A stretch of DNA of 31,480 nt, from IMG/VR virus record IMGVR_UViG_2531839484_000009; one strand, written 5' to 3'. Position numbers and translations under genes: made by a program. Of the stretch, positions 217 to 25,933 are shown piece by piece (within the stretch, counting starts at the first letter, position 1; every line of letters begins with the position of its first letter). This DNA comes from a virus (lineage: Duplodnaviria > Heunggongvirae > Uroviricota > Caudoviricetes). The notes beneath the pieces were generated by a model. The model searched no databases, was not told where the DNA came from, and saw nothing but the letters and a program-made list of their open reading frames with translations.

Positions 217-1935
217 ATGATTTTTAGGGATAGCTTGAGAGTATTACCTTATGGTCGAGTAGATAATGATTTCTTCCAGATAGAAGAAAGACGTTCATGG
301 AATGCAGGGCGATATTATTGGTCTAATAGAAGGATTTTTGGTTATATTGGAATTACTCAATCCAGTAATAAAGAGCTGAAAGATAAGTCGGGGAGAGAGG
401 GATTCATAAGAAACCAGGCTGCAAGAGAACTGAAAACTATTATATCTAATTTGTTAACTGAACTTGCTGATAGATTTTTTGGTTCACGTTCTGATGACCG
501 TAAAGAGCTTTTAGAACAAGTTAAGCGTGAAAAAGAGTTAAGAAAATCTGCTCAACAACAAGCTCGAAAATCAACACAAAAAAGTTTTTCAGAAGCTTTG
601 AAGAATCAGACACCAGTTCTTGATGCTTCCTTGGAGGCTGTTAAAAGGCTGAAAACTAAGCTTGATAAAACTGATGGTTCGTTAGATTTAAACTATCTTA
701 AAATTATAGACAGTGATCTTACAAACTTAGATGCGTTGCGCAGTGAAATTAAAACGCCTATCAAACCTCCAAAACTTGGAATGTATGAAGAGAAATATAG
801 AGACTACAGAGATAAATTTAATGAGTTCTCTGCGTATATTCTACAAATGAAGTTAGCAATTAATAAACTTGATTCTGAATTAAATAAACTTGAGCCTTCA
901 TTGTCAGCGAAAAATCACCTTGAAAAAAATCAAGGTATTATTAATTCTAAACTAACTAAGTTTAATAACACGATAGAGGAGAAGATACATTCTCTTTTAA
1001 AAAAATGGGCCGATGAAATAAAGGTTGATCGAAGTGATTATTATGCTAAAACTATATCAGTTGTTGATTCAATAGATAATGATTCACAAATTGAAAATGT
1101 GTTTAATTTGCTCGATAGTTTATATGTTGAGTCAGTTGATACCCTAACTTTCAAATATCAATCAATAATAAAAGGTCTCGATAGATTATTTGAAGGTATA
1201 AACTTAGATTCAGCATTCTCATTATCTGAAGAAGAACGCTCATATTTTGAAGAAAAAGCTAAAAGTTTAAACGCGCTTGCACAGTTAGGTATTAGTGTTG
1301 AGATAATATCTCATGAACTTGAAGAAATGGATTCTATGGTAACCAGAGGACTAAACTCTCTTCCTACTTCTGTAAAAGAACACCCTGGTTTTTCATTGGC
1401 GTTAAATGCTCACAGATCGCTTACTCAACAAATACGTTTCTTATCACCTTTGAAAATATCAGGTTATCAATCCAGGCAGAGAATAACTGGAAAAAATATC
1501 ATGGATTATGTCCTGAAGTTCTTTGGGGAGCGTTTCGAACGGCAACGAATAACTATTGAATTTAGTGAAGAGTTTAAGCAAATCGCAATAACAGATATAC
1601 CATCAAGGATCTATCCTGTTTTTACTAATATTATCAACAATGCAATGTATTGGGTCAGTCTGTCAAATAATAGGCTCATAAAGATTGGTTTTGTGAATTC
1701 TTTGGTTATCATAGCAAATTCTGGTCCGGCAATTGATACCGATGATATCCCGCGACTATTTGAACTATTTTATAGCAAAAGAGCAAATGGACATGGGGTA
1801 GGTCTGTATCTATGTCGAGAAAACCTTGCTGTTGCACATCATAAAATATGGTATTCAGAACCTGATGAAGGCGATAACTATTTAATAAAAGATGGCGCTA
1901 ATTTTGTGATCCAGTTCAATGGAGTGGAGTTCTAA
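217..1935 (+). CDS. Histidine-kinase-like protein: coiled-coil N-terminal region, HisKA-like H-box, C-terminal GHKL ATPase (HATPase_c)
   Basis: H-box-like IISHELEE; N-box NIINNAMYW; G1-like IDTDD; G2-like GHGVGLYL. No hydrophobic TM segment seen. No in-frame start between the stop at 88-90 and ATG 217. Confidence 0.55.
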   Translation: MIFRDSLRVLPYGRVDNDFFQIEERRSWNAGRYYWSNRRIFGYIGITQSSNKELKDKSGREGFIRNQAARELKTIISNLLTELADRFFGSRSDDRKELLEQVKREKELRKSAQQQARKSTQKSFSEALKNQTPVLDASLEAVKRLKTKLDKTDGSLDLNYLKIIDSDLTNLDALRSEIKTPIKPPKLGMYEEKYRDYRDKFNEFSAYILQMKLAINKLDSELNKLEPSLSAKNHLEKNQGIINSKLTKFNNTIEEKIHSLLKKWADEIKVDRSDYYAKTISVVDSIDNDSQIENVFNLLDSLYVESVDTLTFKYQSIIKGLDRLFEGINLDSAFSLSEEERSYFEEKAKSLNALAQLGISVEIISHELEEMDSMVTRGLNSLPTSVKEHPGFSLALNAHRSLTQQIRFLSPLKISGYQSRQRITGKNIMDYVLKFFGERFERQRITIEFSEEFKQIAITDIPSRIYPVFTNIINNAMYWVSLSNNRLIKIGFVNSLVIIANSGPAIDTDDIPRLFELFYSKRANGHGVGLYLCRENLAVAHHKIWYSEPDEGDNYLIKDGANFVIQFNGVEF

Positions 1936-1936
1936 T

Positions 1937-3685
1937 ATGACAGTGGCAAATTATAATTCTCTTGTCCAGAAAACTTTCTGCGAAAATGCAATTCGTTCCG
2001 TTGTCATGATTGATGACGATTTTCTGACGTATTCTGAATCAATCAGGGCGTTGAATAACGAAGTTGATTTAGACTACAACAAAATTGACTCATCTAAACG
2101 AGCCGCTACTCTTGAGAGCTTTTTTCAATCTAAAAATATGATTTGTGATGTTGACAATGGTTCTGTTAATTTCGATGTGGATCGGATTAGAAAATCAGAT
2201 CTTATTATTGTAGATTATCATCTTGATAATAATGCACCTGATAAAACACTTAAACCATTACAAGATTTGAAAGACTCCGATCATTTAAATATGATTGTAA
2301 TATATACTAGAGAGAATTTAGAAACGGTTTGGATGCAGATATCATCGACTCTCAAAGGTGCTCTGGATATCAACAGCTTGATCATTGACTACGATAATGA
2401 AGATGTCCAAAGTTATTGGGAAGACGTTGTATTACCGAACTTAAATGATAATGGTAATAAAGCTCTCACAAGAGATGAAACAATAGCCTATATTAAAGAC
2501 AGTAAGCCTTGTAGAAGAATTAAAAGATTAATACATGATGATGCTGTGTTGGAGGATCAAAAGGATAAAAACTTCATTGCAAAAATGATTGCAGAATATG
2601 CTGTGTCTAGAAATGCAATTATTTCTAGCAACACATCTGGCAATGTCATTCGGGGTGATGAAAGCGGAGTAAAATGGATTCAATGTGGTAATATCTTTGT
2701 CTCCCTATTTCATAAGGTTCAAGATGATCATGAAAACGATGGAGATAGGATTTGGCAAACTCTCAATGATTCTCTCATTGAATGGAAACCATCTTATTAT
2801 CAGTTAATAAAATCTGAAATTCAGAATGCAATCGAAGCTGAGGCTTTATCTTTTGTAAATCATTTGGCTAACGATCATTACGGTCAAGCTGCGTGGTTAA
2901 ATGAGATATTAAAATCAGACTCGCCTGATATTAGATGTAGAAATATTGACTTTGTATTTGGTAATTTATCAGAAGAGCTTTATCAAAGACTTAAAAATAA
3001 TAATACGCTGGATGAATTTATCAAAAGTGTTTTTGATAGCTATTCAAATGAATACGCTAACAGCGGAGTTGCTGCATTGCTCCAATATTGCTCTTCAAAA
3101 ATGGATCTGCCATCAAATAATGATACTTATCACGAAATGTATCATGCTTTAAATATGAATTTGTCTTCAAAGAATTTTGAAGATGGTCATATTTCTACTG
3201 GCACTATTTTCTTTGATACAGAGTCGAACAAATGGTATTTATGTGTATCTGCGGCATGTGATTTGGTTCCTACTCAGGGTAACGACCCTCACCATGTAAG
3301 ATTAAGTCCGCACAGGCTCATTAAAGTTCTGGAGCTTTTTAACGCCAGTCAGAGTAAAGCATTGCCATTTGCTGAACATTCGAAATATATATATGTAATG
3401 CATAAAAATCAAAGAAAATATCTCTCTATTTTCGAAGGGGATAAAACGCTTCCTGTTGTTGATTATATGGTGGTGTTGAATCATGGAACAACAGTTGATG
3501 GCGAAGAAAAAAATATTATTTCTGCCGTGTTTTTAAGTAATATGGATGGCAACGTGCAAAATGTTCCTGTCCGACTCAAACTTAAATCTCAACTGAGAAC
3601 TGGTTATGCAGAAAGATATCAGGCTATAGCGTCTCAGTATAGCTCAAGGATTGGTGTGGATTATGTATCAATGATGCTACCATAA
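1937..3685 (+). CDS. Receiver (REC)-like domain protein with ~450-aa uncharacterised C-terminal domain
   Basis: N-terminal motifs VVMIDDD, DLIIVDYHL and MIVIYT fit the REC beta1/beta3/beta4 pattern. ATG 1937 is preferred over ATG 1919 because GGAGTGGAG sits 7 nt upstream; it lies 1 nt after the kinase stop. No HTH output domain recognised. Confidence 0.5.
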   Translation: MTVANYNSLVQKTFCENAIRSVVMIDDDFLTYSESIRALNNEVDLDYNKIDSSKRAATLESFFQSKNMICDVDNGSVNFDVDRIRKSDLIIVDYHLDNNAPDKTLKPLQDLKDSDHLNMIVIYTRENLETVWMQISSTLKGALDINSLIIDYDNEDVQSYWEDVVLPNLNDNGNKALTRDETIAYIKDSKPCRRIKRLIHDDAVLEDQKDKNFIAKMIAEYAVSRNAIISSNTSGNVIRGDESGVKWIQCGNIFVSLFHKVQDDHENDGDRIWQTLNDSLIEWKPSYYQLIKSEIQNAIEAEALSFVNHLANDHYGQAAWLNEILKSDSPDIRCRNIDFVFGNLSEELYQRLKNNNTLDEFIKSVFDSYSNEYANSGVAALLQYCSSKMDLPSNNDTYHEMYHALNMNLSSKNFEDGHISTGTIFFDTESNKWYLCVSAACDLVPTQGNDPHHVRLSPHRLIKVLELFNASQSKALPFAEHSKYIYVMHKNQRKYLSIFEGDKTLPVVDYMVVLNHGTTVDGEEKNIISAVFLSNMDGNVQNVPVRLKLKSQLRTGYAERYQAIASQYSSRIGVDYVSMMLP

Positions 3686-4211: not shown

Positions 4212-5441
4212 TTAGGCTACCAGAGCATTTGATCTTTGAGCTTGAACGTAATCACTCCACCATTGCATCAAACTCTGTCGCTCTATCAGATATTCTGCAC
4301 GATTGTATGCTGCGATAATTTCATCTTTTTTCGAGTGGGCAAGCGCTGCCTCAAGAACTTCAGCTCTGAATTTACCAGACTCCTCTGCCGCTGTTCGTGC
4401 AATAGAACGCATACCGTGAGCTACAAGCTCGCCTCCGAACCCCATTCGGATGATAGCTGCGTTGGCTGTTTGTTCATGCATATGATTAAGAGGCGCTTTT
4501 ATGCTGGGGAAAACCCATTCTCTATGCCCACTTATTGATTTCATTAATTCAAGGATGCGCAAAGCTTCTTTACTCAAAGGAACTTTGTGAAGCTTTTTCA
4601 TTTTCATGAAATCAGCAGGAATGTTCCAAATGCTGTTGGTTGTATCAATATCAGACCACCTTGCGCGAACGGCTTCACCCGGACGAACCCATGTCAACAA
4701 TTGCCATTCAATTAGCATACGTGTTTCCAACCGGATTGACGCATTCGTCAAAGATTCCATAAACCTTGGCAATTCGCTTGGGGGAAGGGCAGGCATATTT
4801 TGCTTTTTTGGTTTACTGAATCTTTGACCAAGGTTGTCAGCCGGGTTGAACTCAATAAGTTCTTCAGTAGCTGCCCACCGGAAGATTTCATTCAGACGTG
4901 AAATGATACGGCGTAGAGTTTCCAATACGCCTCGTTGCTCAATAGGATCAAGGTGTTGTTTTAAGAGCTTAGGTCGGATCTCATTGATAGGGACATTACC
5001 CAGACCGGGAAAGACATTTCTCTCTAAGCTGCGCCAGATGTCTGCTGCATGGTCTTGTGAGATACCTGATGTCTTTACCTTCTCATCTAACCATTTCCGC
5101 GCTACGGCTTGGAGAGTGTGCTCAGTAGCACTCTTTAATGCCTTCGCCTTATCGTTGTTATGGATTTGGGGATCAACACCATTTGCCAGAAAGGAGAGAT
5201 ATTCATCACGTAAGGCTCTGGCTCTTGCAAGGGTAAGGTGAGGATATGTCCCAAGGCTCATTTTGGTTCTTTTCTTGCTCACTGGTACTGCATACCTGAA
5301 ATACCAATTTTTCTTGCCTCCTTTCGCCAAAGGAGCGATTCGTAGAATCAGACCATCACCGTCAAACAAGTTGATTTCTTTATCGGCTGGCTTGGTGCTT
5401 TTGATTTCAGTGTCAGTGAGCTTCTTAGCGATTTTTGCCAT
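4212..5441 (-). CDS. int: Tyrosine integrase, P4-like family with N-terminal arm-binding domain
   Basis: N-terminus KLTDTEIKSTKP...LFDGDGLILRIAPLAKGGKKNWYFRY is typical of P4-type integrases; C-terminal catalytic region HGMRSIARTAA. Start ATG 5441 has GAGGG upstream; ATG 5483 is an alternative in-frame start. Confidence 0.85.
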   Translation of the reverse strand: MAKIAKKLTDTEIKSTKPADKEINLFDGDGLILRIAPLAKGGKKNWYFRYAVPVSKKRTKMSLGTYPHLTLARARALRDEYLSFLANGVDPQIHNNDKAKALKSATEHTLQAVARKWLDEKVKTSGISQDHAADIWRSLERNVFPGLGNVPINEIRPKLLKQHLDPIEQRGVLETLRRIISRLNEIFRWAATEELIEFNPADNLGQRFSKPKKQNMPALPPSELPRFMESLTNASIRLETRMLIEWQLLTWVRPGEAVRARWSDIDTTNSIWNIPADFMKMKKLHKVPLSKEALRILELMKSISGHREWVFPSIKAPLNHMHEQTANAAIIRMGFGGELVAHGMRSIARTAAEESGKFRAEVLEAALAHSKKDEIIAAYNRAEYLIERQSLMQWWSDYVQAQRSNALVA

Positions 5442-5538
5442 TTTGGGACCCTCGGTTTTTGGACCCTTCTTAGTGGGTCCCATTCAGGGTGCCATAACTC
5501 GTAGTTCTCAGCAATTCTCACTGGACGACAATAGACGT

Positions 5539-5606: not shown

Positions 5607-5651
5607 TGGTGGAGCTGGCGGGAGTTGAACCCGCGTCCGAAATTCCTACAT
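5607..5651 (-). repeat. ssrA: 45-bp copy of the 3' end of tmRNA gene ssrA including the CCA end; att core / integration-site remnant
   Basis: Minus strand matches the recalled E. coli ssrA 3' terminus ...ATGTAGGAATTTCGGACGCGGGTTCAACTCCCGCCAGCTCCACCA over 45 nt, then diverges into AT-rich sequence. Confidence 0.75.
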
Positions 5652-5767
5652 ACCATTTTCACTACAGAAAAAATAATGATTTATGTTTAAAAACAATATG
5701 TTAGTGTTATGTGGTGTTTGGCAGTTTTATCTGTTTTTAAAGCTCTGCCGCCAAAATGTCGCCATCA

Positions 5768-6799
5768 TCAATCGCGTCTCAGCTGGGGTAAGCGAGACAT
5801 CTTGGCGGGTTGATAAGCTATAGTGATCAAGAACTGAGAATACTTGAACCAATTCTCTAGAATCCCTTCACCATATATCAAAATTTTATCTTCTATAGGG
5901 AAGTACAAGTTTACCACTTCATTTCTGCAAGTATCCAAGAAGGCGTAGGTTATCTCTTCTAAGGATTGCAGTGATTCGTACAGAGTGCCAAAATCATAAA
6001 ATGGTGAATAAACTTGGTATTTATTATAACTATCATTTATTACAAATGACTTTTTATAATGAAATCCACCTAAACACAACAGTTTACAAGTTTTTTCATA
6101 AATAATCATAACTCCTACAAATATTCTCATCTTTGTTGTGCAAAGTTCCTCTGTAGGATGTATTTGATTTTCACTCTCGGATAATTGCTTGAGTCTTGCG
6201 TTGATTTCTACCCAACATTTGTGTAAATCAATAACAAATTGCTCATTAATATCTAATTGTTGAGAATCATCAGGCGTAGATTGTGGGTATGCTTTTCTAT
6301 ATAGTTCTTGTGGATGTTTTATAAAATGTTGGTAGATTGCTTCAGCTTGAGCTTCCTGAACCGGGTAGTAGCTGCCTATTCTTTTTCCTTCGATTTTTTT
6401 ATATAAATCAAGATGAAATTTCATGTGGTTGTAATATAAATCTACCCTGTTTTTCCTTTCTGCCTCTGAGATCTGTTTTTCTGTTTGTTTGGTTCTGTGT
6501 AGGTTGTTTACTATTGAAACTAAAGGTACTGCAGATGCAAGGATGAGTAATGGTAATTTCGAGATATCTAAAAATCTCTCATAACCGTGACTTGTAAGAC
6601 TAAAAGAGTGTATTTTATCTATCCAGACAAAAGAACCAAAGTAAAGGCTGGTGAATAAAGGTAGGCCTATTGCAGCCCAGAACAAGGGTTGTTGGAACAA
6701 GCTTCTATGATCGAGAACATAAAGTCGATATTTTATAAATAAGAATATACAACCTAATAAAACGGATAGGTACATAAATGTGCTAATGCTTTTTTCCAT
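5768..6799 (-). CDS. Membrane-anchored hypothetical protein (N-terminal TM helices plus ~250-aa soluble domain); prophage cargo between int and att
   Basis: ATG 6799 lies 2 nt after the int stop (6802-6804) on the same strand; N-terminal hydrophobic segments YLSVLLGCIFLFI, LFWAAIGLPLFTSLYFGSFVW, LPLLILASAVPLVSIV; AT-rich relative to int. Confidence 0.5.
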   Translation of the reverse strand: MEKSISTFMYLSVLLGCIFLFIKYRLYVLDHRSLFQQPLFWAAIGLPLFTSLYFGSFVWIDKIHSFSLTSHGYERFLDISKLPLLILASAVPLVSIVNNLHRTKQTEKQISEAERKNRVDLYYNHMKFHLDLYKKIEGKRIGSYYPVQEAQAEAIYQHFIKHPQELYRKAYPQSTPDDSQQLDINEQFVIDLHKCWVEINARLKQLSESENQIHPTEELCTTKMRIFVGVMIIYEKTCKLLCLGGFHYKKSFVINDSYNKYQVYSPFYDFGTLYESLQSLEEITYAFLDTCRNEVVNLYFPIEDKILIYGEGILENWFKYSQFLITIAYQPAKMSRLPQLRRD

Positions 6800-6801
6800 T
6801 A

Positions 6802-7821
6802 TCAGTATCCCAACATAGCCAGTGGATTTTTTGTTACAGCATCTTCTAAATGATCTGGCGAAAAATGAGCATAAACCATCGTCATTTTTATATCAGAGTG
6901 ACCAAGAATATCGCGTAGTACCAATATGTTTCCGCCATTCATCATGAAGTGACTGGCGAATGTATGGCGCAACACGTGTGTGCACTGGCCTTCAGGCAGG
7001 TCTATACCGGCTCGTTTTACTGCGCGCTCAAAAGCTTTTCTGCAGGGCGTGAATAGTTTCCCTCTGTTTTTGGGGAGTTCTTCATATAGCTCCTGAGATA
7101 TCGGTACGGTTCGGTTTTTCTTGCCTTTAGTTTTGGTGTAGGTGATCCGGTATTTTGATAATTGATGGCCCTGCAGGTTTTCGGCTTCACTCCATCTCGC
7201 GCCGGTGGCCAGACATATTTTTGCAACCGTCAGCAGACTAGAGCTTTGAGAATCGGCGCAGGCATCCAGCAGACGTTTAATTTCTTCCGGGGTCAGGAAC
7301 GCCAATTCACTCTCAGCAATTTTAAATGTTGGCAGCCCAGCAAGCGGGTTGGGGGCTGACCAGTGGCCCAGCTTTTTCAGTGTACCAAAAACAGATGATA
7401 GATTGCGCTGTTCAAGGTTTACCGTGCGGGGCTTAACGGGCGACATAAACGTGCCATCTTCATTTCGTACTTCACCTTTTAACCGTGCTTCGCGGTATTT
7501 CGTAAAGTCACCGGCTGTCAGTTCTGAAGCGATGGGATCGCCTAGACCATTACAGATAATACTAAGTTTCGCCATGAGGCGCTTGGGGTCTGTGAGTGTT
7601 TGACCATACAGGGAATACCACAGCTCAATTAATTCTGATAGATGTCGCCGATCTTCCTTTTCCCCCAGCCATGGTTTTTTGTTCACTTCTTCCATTGTGA
7701 AGCTTTCAAATGCAATAGCTTCGCCTTTGGTAGCAAATTGCTTACGCACGCGCTTACCATTGCGTCCATTGGGATAGCACTCACACAACCATTTTCCGTT
7801 CGGCTGTTTTCTGATGGTCAT
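6802..7821 (-). CDS. int: Tyrosine integrase, P2/186 type
   Basis: 339 aa; C-terminal catalytic region HVLRHTFASHFMMNGGNILVLRDILGHSDIKMTMVYAHF; located downstream of the repressor gene as in P2/186. Confidence 0.9.
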   Translation of the reverse strand: MTIRKQPNGKWLCECYPNGRNGKRVRKQFATKGEAIAFESFTMEEVNKKPWLGEKEDRRHLSELIELWYSLYGQTLTDPKRLMAKLSIICNGLGDPIASELTAGDFTKYREARLKGEVRNEDGTFMSPVKPRTVNLEQRNLSSVFGTLKKLGHWSAPNPLAGLPTFKIAESELAFLTPEEIKRLLDACADSQSSSLLTVAKICLATGARWSEAENLQGHQLSKYRITYTKTKGKKNRTVPISQELYEELPKNRGKLFTPCRKAFERAVKRAGIDLPEGQCTHVLRHTFASHFMMNGGNILVLRDILGHSDIKMTMVYAHFSPDHLEDAVTKNPLAMLGY

Positions 7822-14635: not shown

Positions 14636-16606
14636 ATGATAAGAAATATATATATAAAGAATTTTAAAACATTAAATATGACATCATATATCGAACTTAA
14701 AGAATGTTCATTTTTGTGTGGCGCTAACAGTAGTGGTAAAAGTTCACTTATACAAACACTTCTAATGTTAGCTCAAACTTTTTCTAATAGATATCAAGAT
14801 GATAGTATGGTTTTAAATGGGTCTTTAGCAAGACTGGGTTCATTTACAGATATCAAAAAGCACAACTCTACAGAGGAAGTTATTACTATTGGTTTCACTT
14901 TTGATGTTGATGAGGCGTATTATCTTCGTGATAATACAATAAATTCAATTAGATGTGAGTTTGTTATTGGTAGAAGAGACCGCTCTGTAGCAAAAATAGA
15001 CGAAGATTATCATCCTATAATAATTTCTGCGAAATATTTTATTAGTAAGGGGGGGAATAATAAACAACAGGATTATATACACTTCCAATGTTCAGGTGAT
15101 TATTTTTATTCTAAAGAAGTGGTATATGACGTAGTGTCATTCAACACCTCTGAATATAATGATTTGAAGAAGAGGTTTCCAAGTCTAAAGATTTTAAGTA
15201 TTGCTAAATCTGGGGATTTAATTCCTTCTTTAATAAATATTCAATATGATAAAACAAAAAAAGAAAGCTATGAAATAATTAATTTTTTAACTAGAAAGCA
15301 TAGCACACAGAGGGGGGGGTATTTTTTAGATGATGAGGATTTTGGTGATGATATTCTTATCCCTAGAGAATTCTCCGCAAGAGTTTTGGAGTTGATAAAG
15401 GAAGAACGTAATAAATTATTGGACGAGTTTGACTTGCCAAACGATCTTCTTGACATCATGACACATAGTCATATTGCTAAAGATGATTATATCTCCTATA
15501 GCTATGACAAAAATAAATTATCGCAGAGAGCTAAGGAATTATTAAACGAAATTAAAGGTAATTTCATTGAAATAAACTATTCTTTACAATCAAGTGATAT
15601 TCCTTTAATTTTTGTAAATAAAGCTGTTAGTATAGTTGATTGGAAATCTTGGTTAGATGCTTTGGATGAGAAGAAAAGGAAAAGTTTAATCGTATTGTTA
15701 GAAAAGCACAGGGACAGTCTACAAGCAATATGGTATAACAATATTGATGTTAAAATGACAAGCGACGTATATAGTTCGCACCTTTTACAAGATGTAGAAA
15801 ATGCAATGGTGTACTGTTTCTCGCGAAGCCTAAAGTACCTTGGGCCTCTACGACATGAACCTCAGGCTGTCTATTCATCGAGCCCTTATGATGCAAACAC
15901 CGTAGGTTTGAAAGGTGAATTTACCGCCTCTCTTCTTCATCGAAATCGCGCTAATTTTATATGTTACAGCTCCCCTTCTATAATTAATGGTAAAATAAAC
16001 GTTAGAGAAAAGTATGATACTCTAAACAACGCTTGTAAAGAGTGGTTGTCATTTTTAGGTGTTGTTGAGGAAGTAAGAACTACTGATAAAGGTAAATTAG
16101 GCTATGAGTTATACGTTAAAACTTCTAGCGGCGAAAAATGGCAAGATCTCACTCACGTAGGTGTTGGTGTCAGTCAAGTACTGCCTATTGTATTGATGTT
16201 CTTGAATTCAGATCCTTCAGATGTGTTAATTTTTGAACAACCGGAATTACATTTACATCCTAAAGTTCAATCTAAATTATGTGACCTTTTTCTTATAATG
16301 GCAAATACTGGTCGCCAGTGCATTATTGAAACTCACAGTGAGTATATGATCAATAGATTGAGGCTTAGAGTTGCGCAAGATTTAGACAATAATTACCTCA
16401 AAAAATCAGCGCTATATTTTATAAATAAAGTTAATGGGATATCAGAATTCCAAAATATAAATATTAACAAGTATGGTGCGATTCCTGAATGGCCTGAAGA
16501 TTTCTTTGATCAAACAGATAAGGAAGTTGAAAAGATTTTAATGGAGGCAAGCATAAAGAAAAATAAAGAAAAAGCTAAGAGGTTTACCAATGACAGCGGT
16601 TATTAA
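14636..16606 (+). CDS. ABC/OLD-type (AAA_15/AAA_21-like) ATPase with Walker A and Walker B separated by ~500 aa
   Basis: Walker A GANSSGKSS near the N-terminus; Walker-B-like VLIFEQPELHLHP and H-loop-like IIETHS near residue 530-560; strongly AT-rich. Confidence 0.7.
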   Translation: MIRNIYIKNFKTLNMTSYIELKECSFLCGANSSGKSSLIQTLLMLAQTFSNRYQDDSMVLNGSLARLGSFTDIKKHNSTEEVITIGFTFDVDEAYYLRDNTINSIRCEFVIGRRDRSVAKIDEDYHPIIISAKYFISKGGNNKQQDYIHFQCSGDYFYSKEVVYDVVSFNTSEYNDLKKRFPSLKILSIAKSGDLIPSLINIQYDKTKKESYEIINFLTRKHSTQRGGYFLDDEDFGDDILIPREFSARVLELIKEERNKLLDEFDLPNDLLDIMTHSHIAKDDYISYSYDKNKLSQRAKELLNEIKGNFIEINYSLQSSDIPLIFVNKAVSIVDWKSWLDALDEKKRKSLIVLLEKHRDSLQAIWYNNIDVKMTSDVYSSHLLQDVENAMVYCFSRSLKYLGPLRHEPQAVYSSSPYDANTVGLKGEFTASLLHRNRANFICYSSPSIINGKINVREKYDTLNNACKEWLSFLGVVEEVRTTDKGKLGYELYVKTSSGEKWQDLTHVGVGVSQVLPIVLMFLNSDPSDVLIFEQPELHLHPKVQSKLCDLFLIMANTGRQCIIETHSEYMINRLRLRVAQDLDNNYLKKSALYFINKVNGISEFQNININKYGAIPEWPEDFFDQTDKEVEKILMEASIKKNKEKAKRFTNDSGY

Positions 16607-17615
16607 ATTTGAATATTTAATATCTCCATTGATATGCACTGGTGGGCAGGTAGATGAGCATGTCAATGGTCTGCGATTATTAAAAGAATTAGTTAGTAGT
16701 TCTGACATAGACGTCAAATGCGAGGACTCCATACTCAGCAATATGCAAGAGGCTGGTTATTATCCATGTGCTAAAATATTGAGTAGGGCATTCCCTGGTG
16801 GTGAAGATTGCGTTCATAGCGCTCAAGATGTTTCAAAAATAATAAATAATATAATTAGCCATTTCGAAGAGTGCAATCCTGAAGTTACTTCTCATGAAAT
16901 CGAGTGGGACTCGTTTACGGTTGTGCCGCCTATAGAAACAATATCAGATGAGAGAAAAAATAATGTCGAAATTTTCTTGAGGAATATTCTTTCAAGAAAA
17001 TTTCTATTAAGTGAAGAGTTTTCTTTCTTTTATTCTCAAAGAAATAAGCCAATTCTTCAGTCCCAAAAGTTTTCATTAAGCGGTACAATTAGCGATATAT
17101 ACCCTGCGGATAGTGTAGCAATACCCATTGAATTAAGTAATGAAATAATTGCTCACGGTAATATTAATGATTTCATCAATAATATTGATGGGTACTCTTT
17201 ATATAAAATGGCTAGTAATATATCCGCTCTTAAATGTGCTCTCTTTTTTGGTTGTGTAAATTTTTTGAAAAATAATTATACAGGTGAAAAGTTCGAATGG
17301 GATGATTTCAAAATAGGAGCAGATTTTTTTGATTCGTTGCTAAGACATCAAGGTGCTTTTGAACAAGAGTTTTCCTCAGTAGTTTATGAAACTATAGTGC
17401 AAGTTTTATGTCGCCATCCTAAAAATGAAGTAAAACCATTTAGAGTATCTTCCAAGTCTACTGAACAAAGAACCCATGGTGATTTAAGGGCCTTTCGCAC
17501 CCATATCACTTCTAGACATCAAGCATTGAGACTAATGTTTTGGGTTGATTCCAATCAAATAATCACATTGGCAAATATTGGTCCGAAATTTGAAGAATCT
17601 ATTTCTTTGCCATGA
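16590..17615 (+). CDS. Uncharacterised partner protein of the ATPase (341 aa), putative effector
   Basis: ATG 16590 overlaps the ATPase gene by 17 nt, AGAGG 8 nt upstream; no recognisable HNH or clear TOPRIM motifs; C-terminal RAFRTH / RTHITSRH fit an Rx4-6H pattern. Confidence 0.5.
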   Translation: MTAVIKFEYLISPLICTGGQVDEHVNGLRLLKELVSSSDIDVKCEDSILSNMQEAGYYPCAKILSRAFPGGEDCVHSAQDVSKIINNIISHFEECNPEVTSHEIEWDSFTVVPPIETISDERKNNVEIFLRNILSRKFLLSEEFSFFYSQRNKPILQSQKFSLSGTISDIYPADSVAIPIELSNEIIAHGNINDFINNIDGYSLYKMASNISALKCALFFGCVNFLKNNYTGEKFEWDDFKIGADFFDSLLRHQGAFEQEFSSVVYETIVQVLCRHPKNEVKPFRVSSKSTEQRTHGDLRAFRTHITSRHQALRLMFWVDSNQIITLANIGPKFEESISLP

Positions 17616-23893: not shown

Positions 23894-24109
23894 ATGACGC
23901 TTGAGCGAATCAGCGCCTTTATCACGTATTGCATCGCCGTCGTGCTGGCCTGGCTGGGCGATTTGTCCATCAAGGATGCCTCAACGCTGGGCGGCCTGAT
24001 GATTGGTGTGCTGATGCTGGCTATCAACTGGTACTACAAACACAAAGCCTACCAGCTTCTGCGCGACGGGCAGATCTCGCGGGAGGACTATGAATCCATC
24101 AATCGTTAA
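23894..24109 (+). CDS. Holin (small two-TM membrane protein)
   Basis: 71 aa with hydrophobic segments AFITYCIAVVLAWL and GGLMIGVLMLAINWYY; immediately precedes the endolysin. Confidence 0.55.
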   Translation: MTLERISAFITYCIAVVLAWLGDLSIKDASTLGGLMIGVLMLAINWYYKHKAYQLLRDGQISREDYESINR

Positions 24110-24602
24110 ACGCTGCCTTGTCGGGGCCGTGCTGGCTATTGCTGCCACGCTGCCGGGGTTTCAGCAGCTTCACACCTCCGTGGAGGGACTGAAACTGATC
24201 GCCGATTACGAAGGCTGTCGTCTGCAGCCGTATCAGTGCAGCGCGGGTGTCTGGACCGACGGCATTGGTAATACGTCGGGCGTCATTCCCGGCAAAATTA
24301 TTACGGAACGACAGGCAGCAGAAGGGCTGATCTCCAACGTGCTACGTGTGGAGCGGGCGCTGGAAAGGTGTGTGAAGCAACAGCCGCCGCAGAAGGTGTA
24401 TGACGCTACGGTGTCGTTTGCCTTCAACGTGGGAACGGGCAATGCCTGTAGTTCCACGCTGGTGAAATTGCTCAATCAGCGGCGCTGGGCGGATGCGTGC
24501 CGACAGTTGCCTCGCTGGGTTTATGTGAAAGGTGTTTTTAATCAGGGGCTGGATAACCGCCGTGCGCGGGAGATGGCCTGGTGCTTACAGGGAGCAAACT
24601 GA
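24090..24602 (+). CDS. Endolysin, lysozyme-like with N-terminal signal-arrest-release (SAR) segment
   Basis: Catalytic-region pattern EGLKLIADYEG...GVWTDGIGNT; N-terminal hydrophobic CLVGAVLAIAATLPG; GGGAGG upstream of ATG 24090. Confidence 0.8.
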   Translation: MNPSIVKRCLVGAVLAIAATLPGFQQLHTSVEGLKLIADYEGCRLQPYQCSAGVWTDGIGNTSGVIPGKIITERQAAEGLISNVLRVERALERCVKQQPPQKVYDATVSFAFNVGTGNACSSTLVKLLNQRRWADACRQLPRWVYVKGVFNQGLDNRRAREMAWCLQGAN

Positions 24603-24603
24603 A

Positions 24604-24981
24604 ATGAAAAAGAAAGTAATCAGCGGGCTGTTTCTGATGTTATGGATGGCGCTGTTAATCGAAGCAATGGTGTATCCGCAGGGGATTTTTCCGGTACTGG
24701 CAGCGTCCGGCGTTTGGGTAGCCTGTCTGCTGACATGGGCGGTAATTCCGGTAGCACTGGCTGCGTTAATTAAGAATGGCCCGCTCTGGCAGGAGTTGAG
24801 GGCATCTTTGCTGAAGACCATTACCCGAAAAGAAAACGTATTTATCAGCTGGGTGATGCGATTGCTGATTGTCGTAAGTCTCGTCTGGACGGGGTGGGCT
24901 ATTACCCTGGTCTTTTATCTACTGACCGTTATTGCCTTCTGGATCACCCGTAATCAGATGGCGCAACAGGTAGCAGCATGA
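24604..24981 (+). CDS. LysA-like membrane protein (lysis timing)
   Basis: 125 aa with multiple hydrophobic helices; position as P2 lysA. Confidence 0.5.
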   Translation: MKKKVISGLFLMLWMALLIEAMVYPQGIFPVLAASGVWVACLLTWAVIPVALAALIKNGPLWQELRASLLKTITRKENVFISWVMRLLIVVSLVWTGWAITLVFYLLTVIAFWITRNQMAQQVAA

Positions 24982-25406
24982 ACCGGTTGCTGCTGGTTAT
25001 GCTGGCGTTATTACTGGCGGCGCTGGGCTGGCAGACGTGGCGGCTGGCTGATGCCAGCCGGACCATCAGCACGCAGGCGGACGAGCTGCAGAGCAAAAGC
25101 CAGGCACTGGCAAAGAGCAACAGCCAGCTTATCAGCCTGTCCATTCTGACTGAAACCAATAACCGGGAGCAGGCGCGGCTCTATGCCGACGCAGAACAGA
25201 CCAGCGCGCTGCTGAGACAACGACAACGCCGGATTGAGGAACTGAAACGTGAGAAAGAGGATTTACGCCGCTGGGCTGATACTCCTTTGCCTGCTGACAT
25301 TATCCGGCTGCGGGAACGTCCGGCACTCACCGGAGGTGCAGCTTACCGTCAGTGGTTGTCCGCGAGTGACGCCGTGTCGGCTGGATCAGACAGCGCCGCG
25401 CACTAA
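24978..25406 (+). CDS. lysB: LysB, Rz-like inner-membrane spanin
   Basis: N-terminal TM anchor LLLVMLALLLAALGW followed by a coiled-coil, charged periplasmic domain. Confidence 0.65.
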   Translation: MNRLLLVMLALLLAALGWQTWRLADASRTISTQADELQSKSQALAKSNSQLISLSILTETNNREQARLYADAEQTSALLRQRQRRIEELKREKEDLRRWADTPLPADIIRLRERPALTGGAAYRQWLSASDAVSAGSDSAAH

Positions 25407-25539
25407 CGGTGAGCTGAACGCGTTGCTGGATGAAACGGAGGCCGCCTGGGCGGTCTGTGCAGACAAAGTGGACATGATTATTGCGTGTCAGGAGCGAAAC
25501 AGTGAACAAACCACAATCCCTGCGCCACGCCCTCAATAA
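25249..25539 (+). CDS. lysC: LysC, Rz1-like outer-membrane lipoprotein spanin
   Basis: Lipobox LLTLSGC after a signal peptide; starts in the +1 frame inside lysB and runs into R. Confidence 0.6.
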   Translation: MRKRIYAAGLILLCLLTLSGCGNVRHSPEVQLTVSGCPRVTPCRLDQTAPRTNGELNALLDETEAAWAVCADKVDMIIACQERNSEQTTIPAPRPQ

Positions 25540-25933
25540 AGCAGTGCCTTATGTCCGCAATAACCCGGACAAACTGCATCTGTTTGTGGATAACGGTTCG
25601 CTGGTTGCCACGGGGGCCAGCTCCATGTCATGGGAGTACCGTTATACCCTCAACGTGGTGATTGAGGATTTCAGCGGCGACCAGAATCTGCTGATGGCCC
25701 CGGTTTTGCTGTGGCTGCGTGATAACCAGCCCGATGCCATCAATAACCCGGCGTTACGGGAAAAACTATTCACCTTTGAGGTGGATATTTTGCGCAACGA
25801 TGTCTGTGATATCAGCCTTAACCTGCAACTGACGGAGCGTGTGCTGGTCAGTACTGACGGCAGTGTGTCGAGTGTTGAAGCTGTAGCGGAACCCGATGAA
25901 CCTGAAGAAATGTGGACGGTGAAACGTGGCTGA
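25502..25933 (+). CDS. R: Tail completion protein R (P2 gpR-like)
   Basis: GTG 25502 preceded by AGGAG; sequence from KPQSLRHAL resembles the recalled gpR N-terminus. Confidence 0.7.
   Translation: MNKPQSLRHALNKAVPYVRNNPDKLHLFVDNGSLVATGASSMSWEYRYTLNVVIEDFSGDQNLLMAPVLLWLRDNQPDAINNPALREKLFTFEVDILRNDVCDISLNLQLTERVLVSTDGSVSSVEAVAEPDEPEEMWTVKRG

Follow-up and report, generated by a model that had tools for sequence, protein, structure and literature searches.

An open reading frame that begins inside one phage gene and ends inside the next raises the question of whether it is a gene at all and, if it is, what its product does and which of the known gene arrangements it follows. The frame considered here occupies positions 25249-25539 on the plus strand of a 31,480-nt stretch of viral DNA (class Caudoviricetes), which is referred to below as the window. 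The original prediction described a lipoprotein ORF in the +1 frame of lysB, with a signal peptide and a lipobox, that runs on into gene R, and all of these elements were found in place (Table 1). By comparing the locus with profile libraries and with related phages and prophages, we conclude that 25249-25539 is almost certainly lysC, which encodes the o-spanin, or outer-membrane lipoprotein subunit, in a two-component spanin of the P2 type. Nothing was found that contradicts this assignment.

In the ORF listing of the window the frame has 96 codons, starts with GTG, and has a product that begins with MRKRIYAAGLILLCLLTLSGCGNVRH. The distance between the two starts (25249-24978 = 271 = 3x90+1) places lysC in the +1 frame of lysB, and its first nucleotide falls within lysB codon 91. 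The start of the downstream gene R is best placed at GTG 25502, 7 nt after an AGGAG at 25490-25494, and the equivalent start is annotated in phage KP12. With these boundaries the DNA stretch is used in three ways, for lysB, for lysC and for R, and can be divided into a lysB/lysC dual-coding segment, a segment that is read as lysC only, and a short lysC/R overlap.

Table 1. Coordinates of lysC, its parts and the neighbouring lysis and tail genes in the window
Feature	Coordinates	Strand	Details and basis
Holin, 71 aa, two TMDs	23894..24109	+	PF16080, 36.7 bits vs 28.8; phrog_20; hydropathy
Endolysin (Phage_lysozyme)	24090..24602	+	PF00959, 135.7 bits; hydrophobic segment at residues 3-25
4-TMD membrane protein, in the place of P2 lysA	24604..24981	+	NF038378, 122.6 bits; phrog_162; four hydrophobic segments
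lysB CDS, i-spanin, 142 aa	24978..25406	+	TIGR03495; phrog_89
Shine-Dalgarno GAGGA of lysC	25236..25240	+	8 nt 5' of the GTG; read from sequence
lysC CDS, predicted o-spanin precursor, 96 aa	25249..25539	+	GTG start; TAA stop at 25537-25539
lysB/lysC dual-coding segment, 158 nt	25249..25406	+	lysB codons 91-142, lysC codons 1-53
Predicted lipoprotein signal peptide, residues 1-20 (MRKR / IYAAGLILLCLLTL / SG)	25249..25308	+	signal peptidase II substrate by prediction
Lipobox L18-S19-G20-C21	25300..25311	+	codons TTA TCC GGC TGC; read from sequence
Mature LysC, 76 aa, 9% Pro	25309..25536	+	Cys37, Cys43, Cys70 and Cys80 periplasmic by prediction
lysC-only segment, 95 nt	25407..25501	+	between lysB stop and R start
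Gene R, tail completion protein	25502..25933	+	PF06891 P2_Phage_GpR, 163.4 bits
lysC/R overlap, 38 nt	25502..25539	+	last 12 lysC codons and stop; first 12 R codons and 2 nt of the 13th

The family of the product was established by profile matches. LysC scores 122.9 bits against a cut-off of 27 with the NCBIfam equivalog model NF038368 (P2_Rz1, "Rz1-like lysis system protein LysC"), its residues 5-88 aligning with model positions 2-85 of 85, and 55.7 bits (cut-off 27) with the Pfam family PF23793 LysC. It also matches the PHROG families phrog_952 and phrog_456 ('Rz-like spanin'). The partner LysB matches TIGR03495 phage_LysB with 168.1 bits (cut-off 92.75) and phrog_89 'Rz-like spanin' with E = 7e-45. 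A tblastn search recovered the lysC reading frame from 274 phage records, whose hosts range from Klebsiella, Escherichia, Salmonella and Yersinia to Pseudomonas and Burkholderia. The Pfam scan of LysC (E <= 0.01) returned PF23793 and no other model, and the same scan of LysB returned no Rz family and one weak coiled-coil match only, to the domain TMF_TATA_bd (16.8 bits, under its cut-off of 29.1). Because Pfam places LysC in the LysC family only and LysB in no Rz family, the likeness of LysC to lambda Rz1 is, at the level of these profiles, functional rather than a family relationship or a detectable sequence similarity. A match of LysC residues 1-23 to LptM (NCBIfam, 19.2 bits, below 27.7) was set aside as generic lipoprotein signal-peptide likeness and not homology. 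A PDB profile search with LysC gave a chance match to deoxyribose-phosphate aldolase as its best result (E 0.15); by this search, the family is without a solved structure.

By its sequence, the window is a P2-like prophage with a complete predicted P2-type lysis cassette. The lysis-cassette annotation in the original prediction was borne out, as profiles and hydropathy together identify a holin, an endolysin, a 4-TMD protein, lysB and lysC in succession. The endolysin is probably of the SAR type, judging from its hydrophobic N-terminus, and this upstream part of the cassette, with its 71-aa two-TMD holin, differs from the Y and K genes of P2. The stop codon of the 4-TMD gene overlaps the lysB ATG as ATGA. 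The tail genes R and S come after lysC. Elsewhere, ARAGORN found no tRNA or tmRNA gene, and PADLOC gave no match for seven of eight other cargo proteins.

Several of the traits by which a two-component spanin is recognised (Kongari et al. 2018) are present in this cassette. Hydropathy assigns to LysB one N-terminal TMD (residues 1-21), the remainder being hydrophilic, so that LysB has the single N-terminal TMD and predicted periplasmic domain of an i-spanin. For a coiled-coil or helical structure in that domain, the one indication in LysB is the sub-threshold TMF_TATA_bd match. The pair has at least one predicted periplasmic cysteine, LysC contributing four and LysB, which contains no Cys, none. 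The two genes lie in a lysis cassette with a holin and an endolysin, and the cognate i-spanin, identified by TIGR03495, is encoded by a gene that overlaps lysC.

The N-terminus of LysC reads MRKRIYAAGLILLCLLTLSG|C, with cleavage predicted before Cys21. Its n-region has three K/R, all within the first seven residues, and is followed by the hydrophobic core IYAAGLILLCLLTL; in the hydropathy profile, the hydrophobic window covers residues 3-25. The codon TGC at 25309-25311 encodes Cys21, which is predicted to carry the lipid and to begin the mature protein, and the residue at position +2 after it is Gly. The N-terminus fits a PROSITE-style lipoprotein rule, coded here by hand; one relative (L012) has an LPGC lipobox, which is outside the strict form of this rule.

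An AlphaFold2 model of LysC is of moderate overall confidence (mean pLDDT 74, pTM 0.41). In this model a single long helix takes up residues about 53-88, the pLDDT being 93-98 over residues 51-80, and a small hairpin at residues 29-41 carries Cys37 and Cys43. The helical region coincides with the best-conserved part of the two proteins, since the mean pairwise amino acid identity of LysC residues 53-84 is 0.805, the highest of any part of LysC or LysB.

Conservation was assessed in a set of 14 collinear loci in which lysB-lysC-R align without gaps, comprising the window, KP12, SEN8, ST13-OXA48phi12.1 and ten genome loci. The latter are 10 of the 12 genome loci, two of which (L010 and L011) were left out as being cut at a contig end; the genome-loci hosts belong to Escherichia, Tatumella, Lelliottia, Dryocola, Pantoea, Raoultella, Klebsiella and Rosenbergiella. 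All 14 loci keep the GTG start, the K/R-rich n-region, the hydrophobic core and an L[SP][GA]C lipobox with its Cys at residue 21. A GAGG(A/N) Shine-Dalgarno sequence is found at the same 8-nt spacing in 13 of the 14 loci, and L012 has the weaker aagggagctg in place of it. The residue after the lipobox Cys is G, A or S in the collinear loci, and G, A, S, T, N or K in a wider set that includes distant relatives; it is never Asp in either set.

Loss of the lipobox in homologues, which the original prediction had named as the outcome that would speak against it, was looked for, and the Cys proved invariant both in the collinear loci and in the P2-group phages. Cys21 is present in all nine diverse P2-group sequences, including those of Wphi, 186, phiCTX, ST79 and ENT90, and Cys14, Cys37, Cys43 and Cys70 are likewise invariant in the alignment with these five phages. 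Read in the lysB frame, the lipobox nucleotides specify a conserved LysB motif, [IV]xRL[RHQ], and for this reason lipobox conservation alone cannot separate the two frames. The LysB residue that lies over the third base of the Cys codon varies (R, H or Q), and the Cys is constant.

The comparison with P2 lysB/lysC that had been suggested with the original prediction gave the same layout for lysC here as in the P2 group, with a +1-frame start in lysB and a stop in R. At nine loci, from the close clade out to ENT90, lysC is in the +1 frame in all, starts at lysB codon 90-96 and extends 94-184 nt past the lysB stop; an ATG or GTG stands at the lysC start position in Wphi, 186, phiCTX, ST79 and ENT90. 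In the record of the P2 sibling Wphi, lysB occupies 1721..2146, lysC 2001..2291 (96 aa), and R starts at 2254. The lysC/R overlap of 38 nt in Wphi and 186 is identical to that in the window, and 186, phiCTX, ST79 and SEN8 have lysB-lysC-R laid out as in the window. P2, Wphi and 186 share with the window the +1 frame, a start at lysB codon 90-96, a 96-aa product with its stop inside R, the lipobox Cys at residue 21, and the conserved Cys14, Cys37, Cys43 and Cys70. In contrast, their lysC starts with ATG instead of GTG, their lipobox is CAGC or CVGC instead of LSGC, and the LysC of the window is 34-40% identical to the proteins of Wphi, P2 and 186.

Much closer relatives are the Felsduovirus and Klebsiella-Escherichia P2-like prophages (SEN8, 500465-1, 4LV2017, KP12 and vB_EcoM-813R9). 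Their LysC is 73-97% identical to that of the window, from which it differs by a few substitutions (K3 for T3 and E55 for D55 are examples), and their lysB-lysC-R genes are collinear and ungapped. At the DNA level, the window is about 95-97% identical to these Klebsiella and E. coli prophages. The lysC described here is an already known gene of a known kind, and the locus shows nothing out of the ordinary for its family.

Selection in the lysC frame was measured as mean pairwise nucleotide diversity by codon phase across the collinear loci. In the lysC-only segment, diversity is 0.370 at lysC position 3 as compared with 0.194 and 0.123 in the other two phases (Mann-Whitney p = 7.6e-6). This phase signal is wholly independent of lysB, and neither of the alternative phases of the segment shows the third-position signature. 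The neighbouring segments have their diversity peaks where expected for single genes, at lysB position 3 in the lysB-only segment (0.445) and at R position 3 in the R-only segment (0.449). In the lysB/lysC overlap, diversity is 0.199 versus 0.319 in the lysB-only segment (p = 2e-7), and the diversity of lysB third positions drops to 0.207 from the value that they have in lysB alone (p = 1e-7). This pattern is the signature expected of two translated frames, and it makes the locus a worked example of measurable dual-coding constraint. Two minus-strand ORFs were also considered as genes, with their third-position phase worked out by arithmetic on the ORF coordinates. The third positions of the ORF at 25327..25536 fall in the 0.194 phase, which is not the most variable one, and the ORF at 25181..25330 was dropped, since diversity in the lysC-only segment is highest at lysC position 3.

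These data bear directly on the reading of lysC as a chance, untranslated open frame lying over lysB and the lysB-R junction. ORF length is no proof to the contrary, as the window has 61 ORFs of at least 90 aa, many of which are off-frame shadows of real genes and not genes themselves, and constraint on lysB and R could account for part of the conservation of lysC. The chance-ORF reading is nevertheless effectively refuted by two observations, namely that the LysC HMM scores are far over the curated cut-offs and that the lysC-only segment has the codon periodicity of the lysC frame. In addition, LysC residues 53-84 are more conserved at the protein level than LysB, and the frame is open with the same start in phages of hosts from Escherichia to Burkholderia and Pseudomonas. 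The profile matches, the conservation and the selection in the lysC frame thus establish lysC as a real gene. It is extremely unlikely that LysC and LysB act as a lysis-timing regulator instead of an outer-membrane-breaking effector, even though lysB and lysC are still named "lysis regulatory protein" or "lysis control protein" in several records. The regulator label is older than the spanin concept. LysB and LysC have the predicted topology of a spanin pair, one protein being anchored in the inner membrane and the other a lipoprotein of the outer-membrane type; moreover, P2 LysB/LysC is on the list of experimentally tested overlapped two-component spanins (PMC6139136), and LysB/LysC have been summarised as working like Rz/Rz1 (Lynch et al. 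2010, PMC3091744).

Accepting a translated spanin gene, it could still be argued that the actual product is a shorter protein made from an internal start and lacking a functional signal peptide, in line with the way in which lysC is commonly annotated. In the protein search, most entries to which PGAP has given the name "Rz1-like lysis system protein LysC" have a length of 81-87 aa, and the annotated short forms have 87 aa (MILLCLLTLSGC...), 82 aa (MLTLSGC...) or 67 aa. Only the 3' part of lysC is annotated in KP12 (a 58-aa "o-spanin") and in ST13-OXA48phi12.1 (a 38-aa gene), several records of the Felsduovirus and Klebsiella-Escherichia prophages have lysC truncated or unannotated, and the phrog_952 match spans LysC residues 36-95 only. 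However, lipobox processing requires an n-region and an h-region in front, and the K/R-rich n-region of LysC is conserved. The upstream GTG is kept in all the collinear loci and its Shine-Dalgarno sequence in all but one of them, with ATG or GTG there in distant relatives. The window itself has no ATG, GTG or TTG between GTG 25249 and the lipobox; codons 10 and 15 are CTG, and internal CTG starts were rejected given the conserved upstream GTG and n-region. The curated records of Wphi, 186 and SEN8 give the 96-aa form, and misplaced or overlooked o-spanin starts are frequent in annotations, with 64 wrong and 196 unidentified among 528 systems (PMC6139136). Taken together, this evidence makes a shorter product very unlikely. 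Automated annotations that omit lysC or truncate it to the forms above lose, in the latter case, the signal peptide that defines its function; the form to annotate here is the 96-aa, GTG-initiated lysC.

With lysC accepted as an o-spanin gene, its arrangement relative to lysB can be classified. Two-component spanin genes fall into three classes (Kongari et al. 2018, PMC6139136). In the embedded class, exemplified by lambda Rz/Rz1, the i-spanin gene contains the whole of the o-spanin gene; in the overlapped class, exemplified by P2 lysB/lysC, the o-spanin gene continues past the end of the i-spanin frame; and in the separated class, exemplified by T4, the two genes have no overlap. P2 lysC has a +1-frame start in lysB and an out-of-frame stop in R, whereas lambda Rz1 lies entirely in Rz (Lynch et al. 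2010, PMC3091744). In the window, the lysB stop TAA is at 25404-25406 and lysC ends 133 nt beyond it; because of this run past the lysB stop, the lysB/lysC arrangement is overlapped (P2 type) and not embedded (lambda Rz/Rz1 type). Of the original prediction of an "Rz/Rz1-type embedded spanin", the role of lysC as the o-spanin partner of lysB therefore stands, and the embedded label is to be replaced.

The products differ from those of lambda as well as the gene arrangement. According to the spanin literature, mature lambda Rz1 has 40 aa, 10 of them Pro, with a single Cys29 and no predicted or detected helix, whereas mature LysC is almost twice as long, with 9% Pro, four Cys and a confidently predicted helix. 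Other known systems share with the proposed function of LysC an outer-membrane lipoprotein signal and the disruption of the outer membrane, namely T4 PseT.3/PseT.2 and the unimolecular spanin gp11 of T1. In T4, as in LysC/LysB, all periplasmic Cys are in the o-spanin and none in the i-spanin. Unlike lysB/lysC, however, the T4 spanin genes do not overlap, and T1 gp11 combines both anchors in one protein (PMC6139136).

From homology and from published work on lambda, T4 and P2, we infer how LysC would be lipidated, sorted to the outer membrane, assembled with LysB, stabilised by disulfides and engaged in membrane fusion. The 96-aa precursor would be exported, receive diacylglycerol at Cys21, and then be cut by signal peptidase II between Gly20 and Cys21. 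After N-acylation, the Lol system would carry LysC to the inner leaflet of the outer membrane, a sorting suggested by the Gly, not Asp, at position +2. The spanin literature and general lipoprotein biology point to Lgt, LspA and Lnt as the likely processing enzymes. The helical C-terminal part of LysC (about residues 53-88) may then bind the periplasmic C-terminal part of LysB, which would be held in the inner membrane by its one N-terminal TMD, so that the complex would reach across the periplasm, passing through the meshes of the peptidoglycan. LysC, with its four periplasmic cysteines, probably forms stabilising (homotypic) disulfides, LysB being without Cys. Once the peptidoglycan has been destroyed through the action of holin and endolysin, the spanin complexes would be free to change conformation and to disrupt the outer membrane, with fusion to the inner membrane as the probable means, and the virions would be released. 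The mechanism of P2-type spanins has been studied in less detail than that of lambda.

It is possible, though unlikely, that the spanin of the LysC clade differs mechanistically from lambda Rz1 and/or that translation of R is coupled to that of the lysis genes. The former is suggested by the long conserved C-terminal helix, the four invariant or near-invariant cysteines and the Cys-free LysB, as compared with the proline-rich, unstructured Rz1. The latter is suggested by the fact that lysC is read through the Shine-Dalgarno sequence and the start codon of R. A differing mechanism, if true, would only refine the knowledge of a known family. Within the lysC/R overlap, the LysC tail (last 12 residues) has an identity of 0.562 and R has 0.859; since the tail is variable where R is conserved, the C-terminal tail of LysC encoded inside R looks like a run-on that is tolerated, rather than a functional element.

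The lysis cassette of this P2-like prophage is a mosaic, since a holin and endolysin pair resembling a pinholin and SAR endolysin, and unlike the Y/K pair of P2, stands beside a P2-type spanin; the front end of the cassette is phage-21-like. The 71-aa holin has two transmembrane domains and scores above threshold for the HP1-holin Pfam model, its match to the phage 21 S protein being below threshold only, and its homologue in the related phage SEN8 is annotated as "pin holin". The N-terminal segment of the endolysin (residues about 8-23) is weakly hydrophobic and rich in Ala and Gly. The next gene encodes a small membrane protein at the position occupied in P2 by lysA, a putative antiholin, its stop codon and the start codon of lysB overlapping in the sequence ATGA. 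One of the two families that it matches, NF038378, is the DNZ54_00345 family; the other, phrog_162, is labelled "endolysin", which seems mistaken, as the protein is small and polytopic.

The AGGAG Shine-Dalgarno sequence and GTG start of the tail gene R (25490-25504) are located inside the coding sequence of the o-spanin gene lysC, so that a ribosome engaged on lysC crosses the place where R translation begins. The lysC codons over this initiation site read C-Q-E-R-N-S-E, and the presence of the R Shine-Dalgarno sequence and start may be one reason why CQER is so strongly conserved in LysC.

Annotations of lysC shortened at the 5' end are frequent in public records. The PGAP proteins have 81-87 aa and begin with MLTLSGC or MILLCLLTLSGC, some database entries have 67 aa, and the products annotated in the related phages KP12 ("putative o-spanin") and ST13-OXA48phi12.1 ("Rz-like spanin") have 58 and 38 aa, respectively; all of these shortened forms lack the signal peptide partly or wholly. 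Many Klebsiella prophage records are wholly unannotated. The reverse error is found in the more distant Erwinia phage ENT90 (locus L006, 1396-1821), where the annotated start lies 105 nt too far upstream, resulting in a 141-aa product in which 35 non-homologous N-terminal residues precede the conserved signal peptide MQTRHYAAGL...

Features of the window and of related loci
Feature	Coordinates	Strand	Remarks
Two overlapping genes	217-3685		left of the P4-type integrase
P4-type integrase of second island	4212-5483	minus	
343-aa ORF	5768-6799	minus	at that end of the prophage which borders the ssrA-like fragment; directly adjoins the P2-type integrase
P2-like prophage integrase	6802-7821	minus	
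Two overlapping genes	14636-17615		between replication region and portal gene
Holin and endolysin genes	23894-24602		front end of the lysis cassette
Membrane protein, 125 aa	24604-24981		four hydrophobic segments; matches NF038378 and phrog_162
lysC with 5'-shortened annotations	25249-25539 (window); 2867-3040 (relative's locus L001); 1675-1791 (relative's locus L008)		database proteins P0006-P0016 and others

The overlapping genes preceding the portal gene are probably anti-phage defence cargo in a P2-type variable hotspot. The first encodes a 656-aa ABC/AAA_15-AAA_21 ATPase with DUF3696, for which the top PADLOC match is NsnB (261 bits), with matches also to HEC-03B, PDC-M55A, AriA and Old/GajA-like models; the second encodes a 341-aa protein without a match in Pfam, NCBIfam or PADLOC.

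An Rfam tmRNA match on the minus strand (5607-5783; 50.2 bits, the gathering score being 47) aligns well only over the 3' ~60 nt, about 5607-5665, comprising the T-arm, the acceptor 3' strand and CCA, and ARAGORN found no tmRNA gene. The match looks like a 3'-end fragment of ssrA, a remnant of an att site. With the P2-like prophage on one side of it and, on the other, a second island carrying an integrase of P4 type, the arrangement points to tandem integration at ssrA. The adjoining 343-aa ORF, with no match in Pfam, NCBIfam or PADLOC, may be a cargo or moron gene. The two overlapping genes farther left, for which PADLOC gave no match, lie on a genomic island and form an unusual pair that is histidine-kinase-like: HEF_HK and HATPase_c domains occur in the 572-aa product of one, and a Response_reg_2 receiver domain (PF19192) in the 588-aa product of the other.
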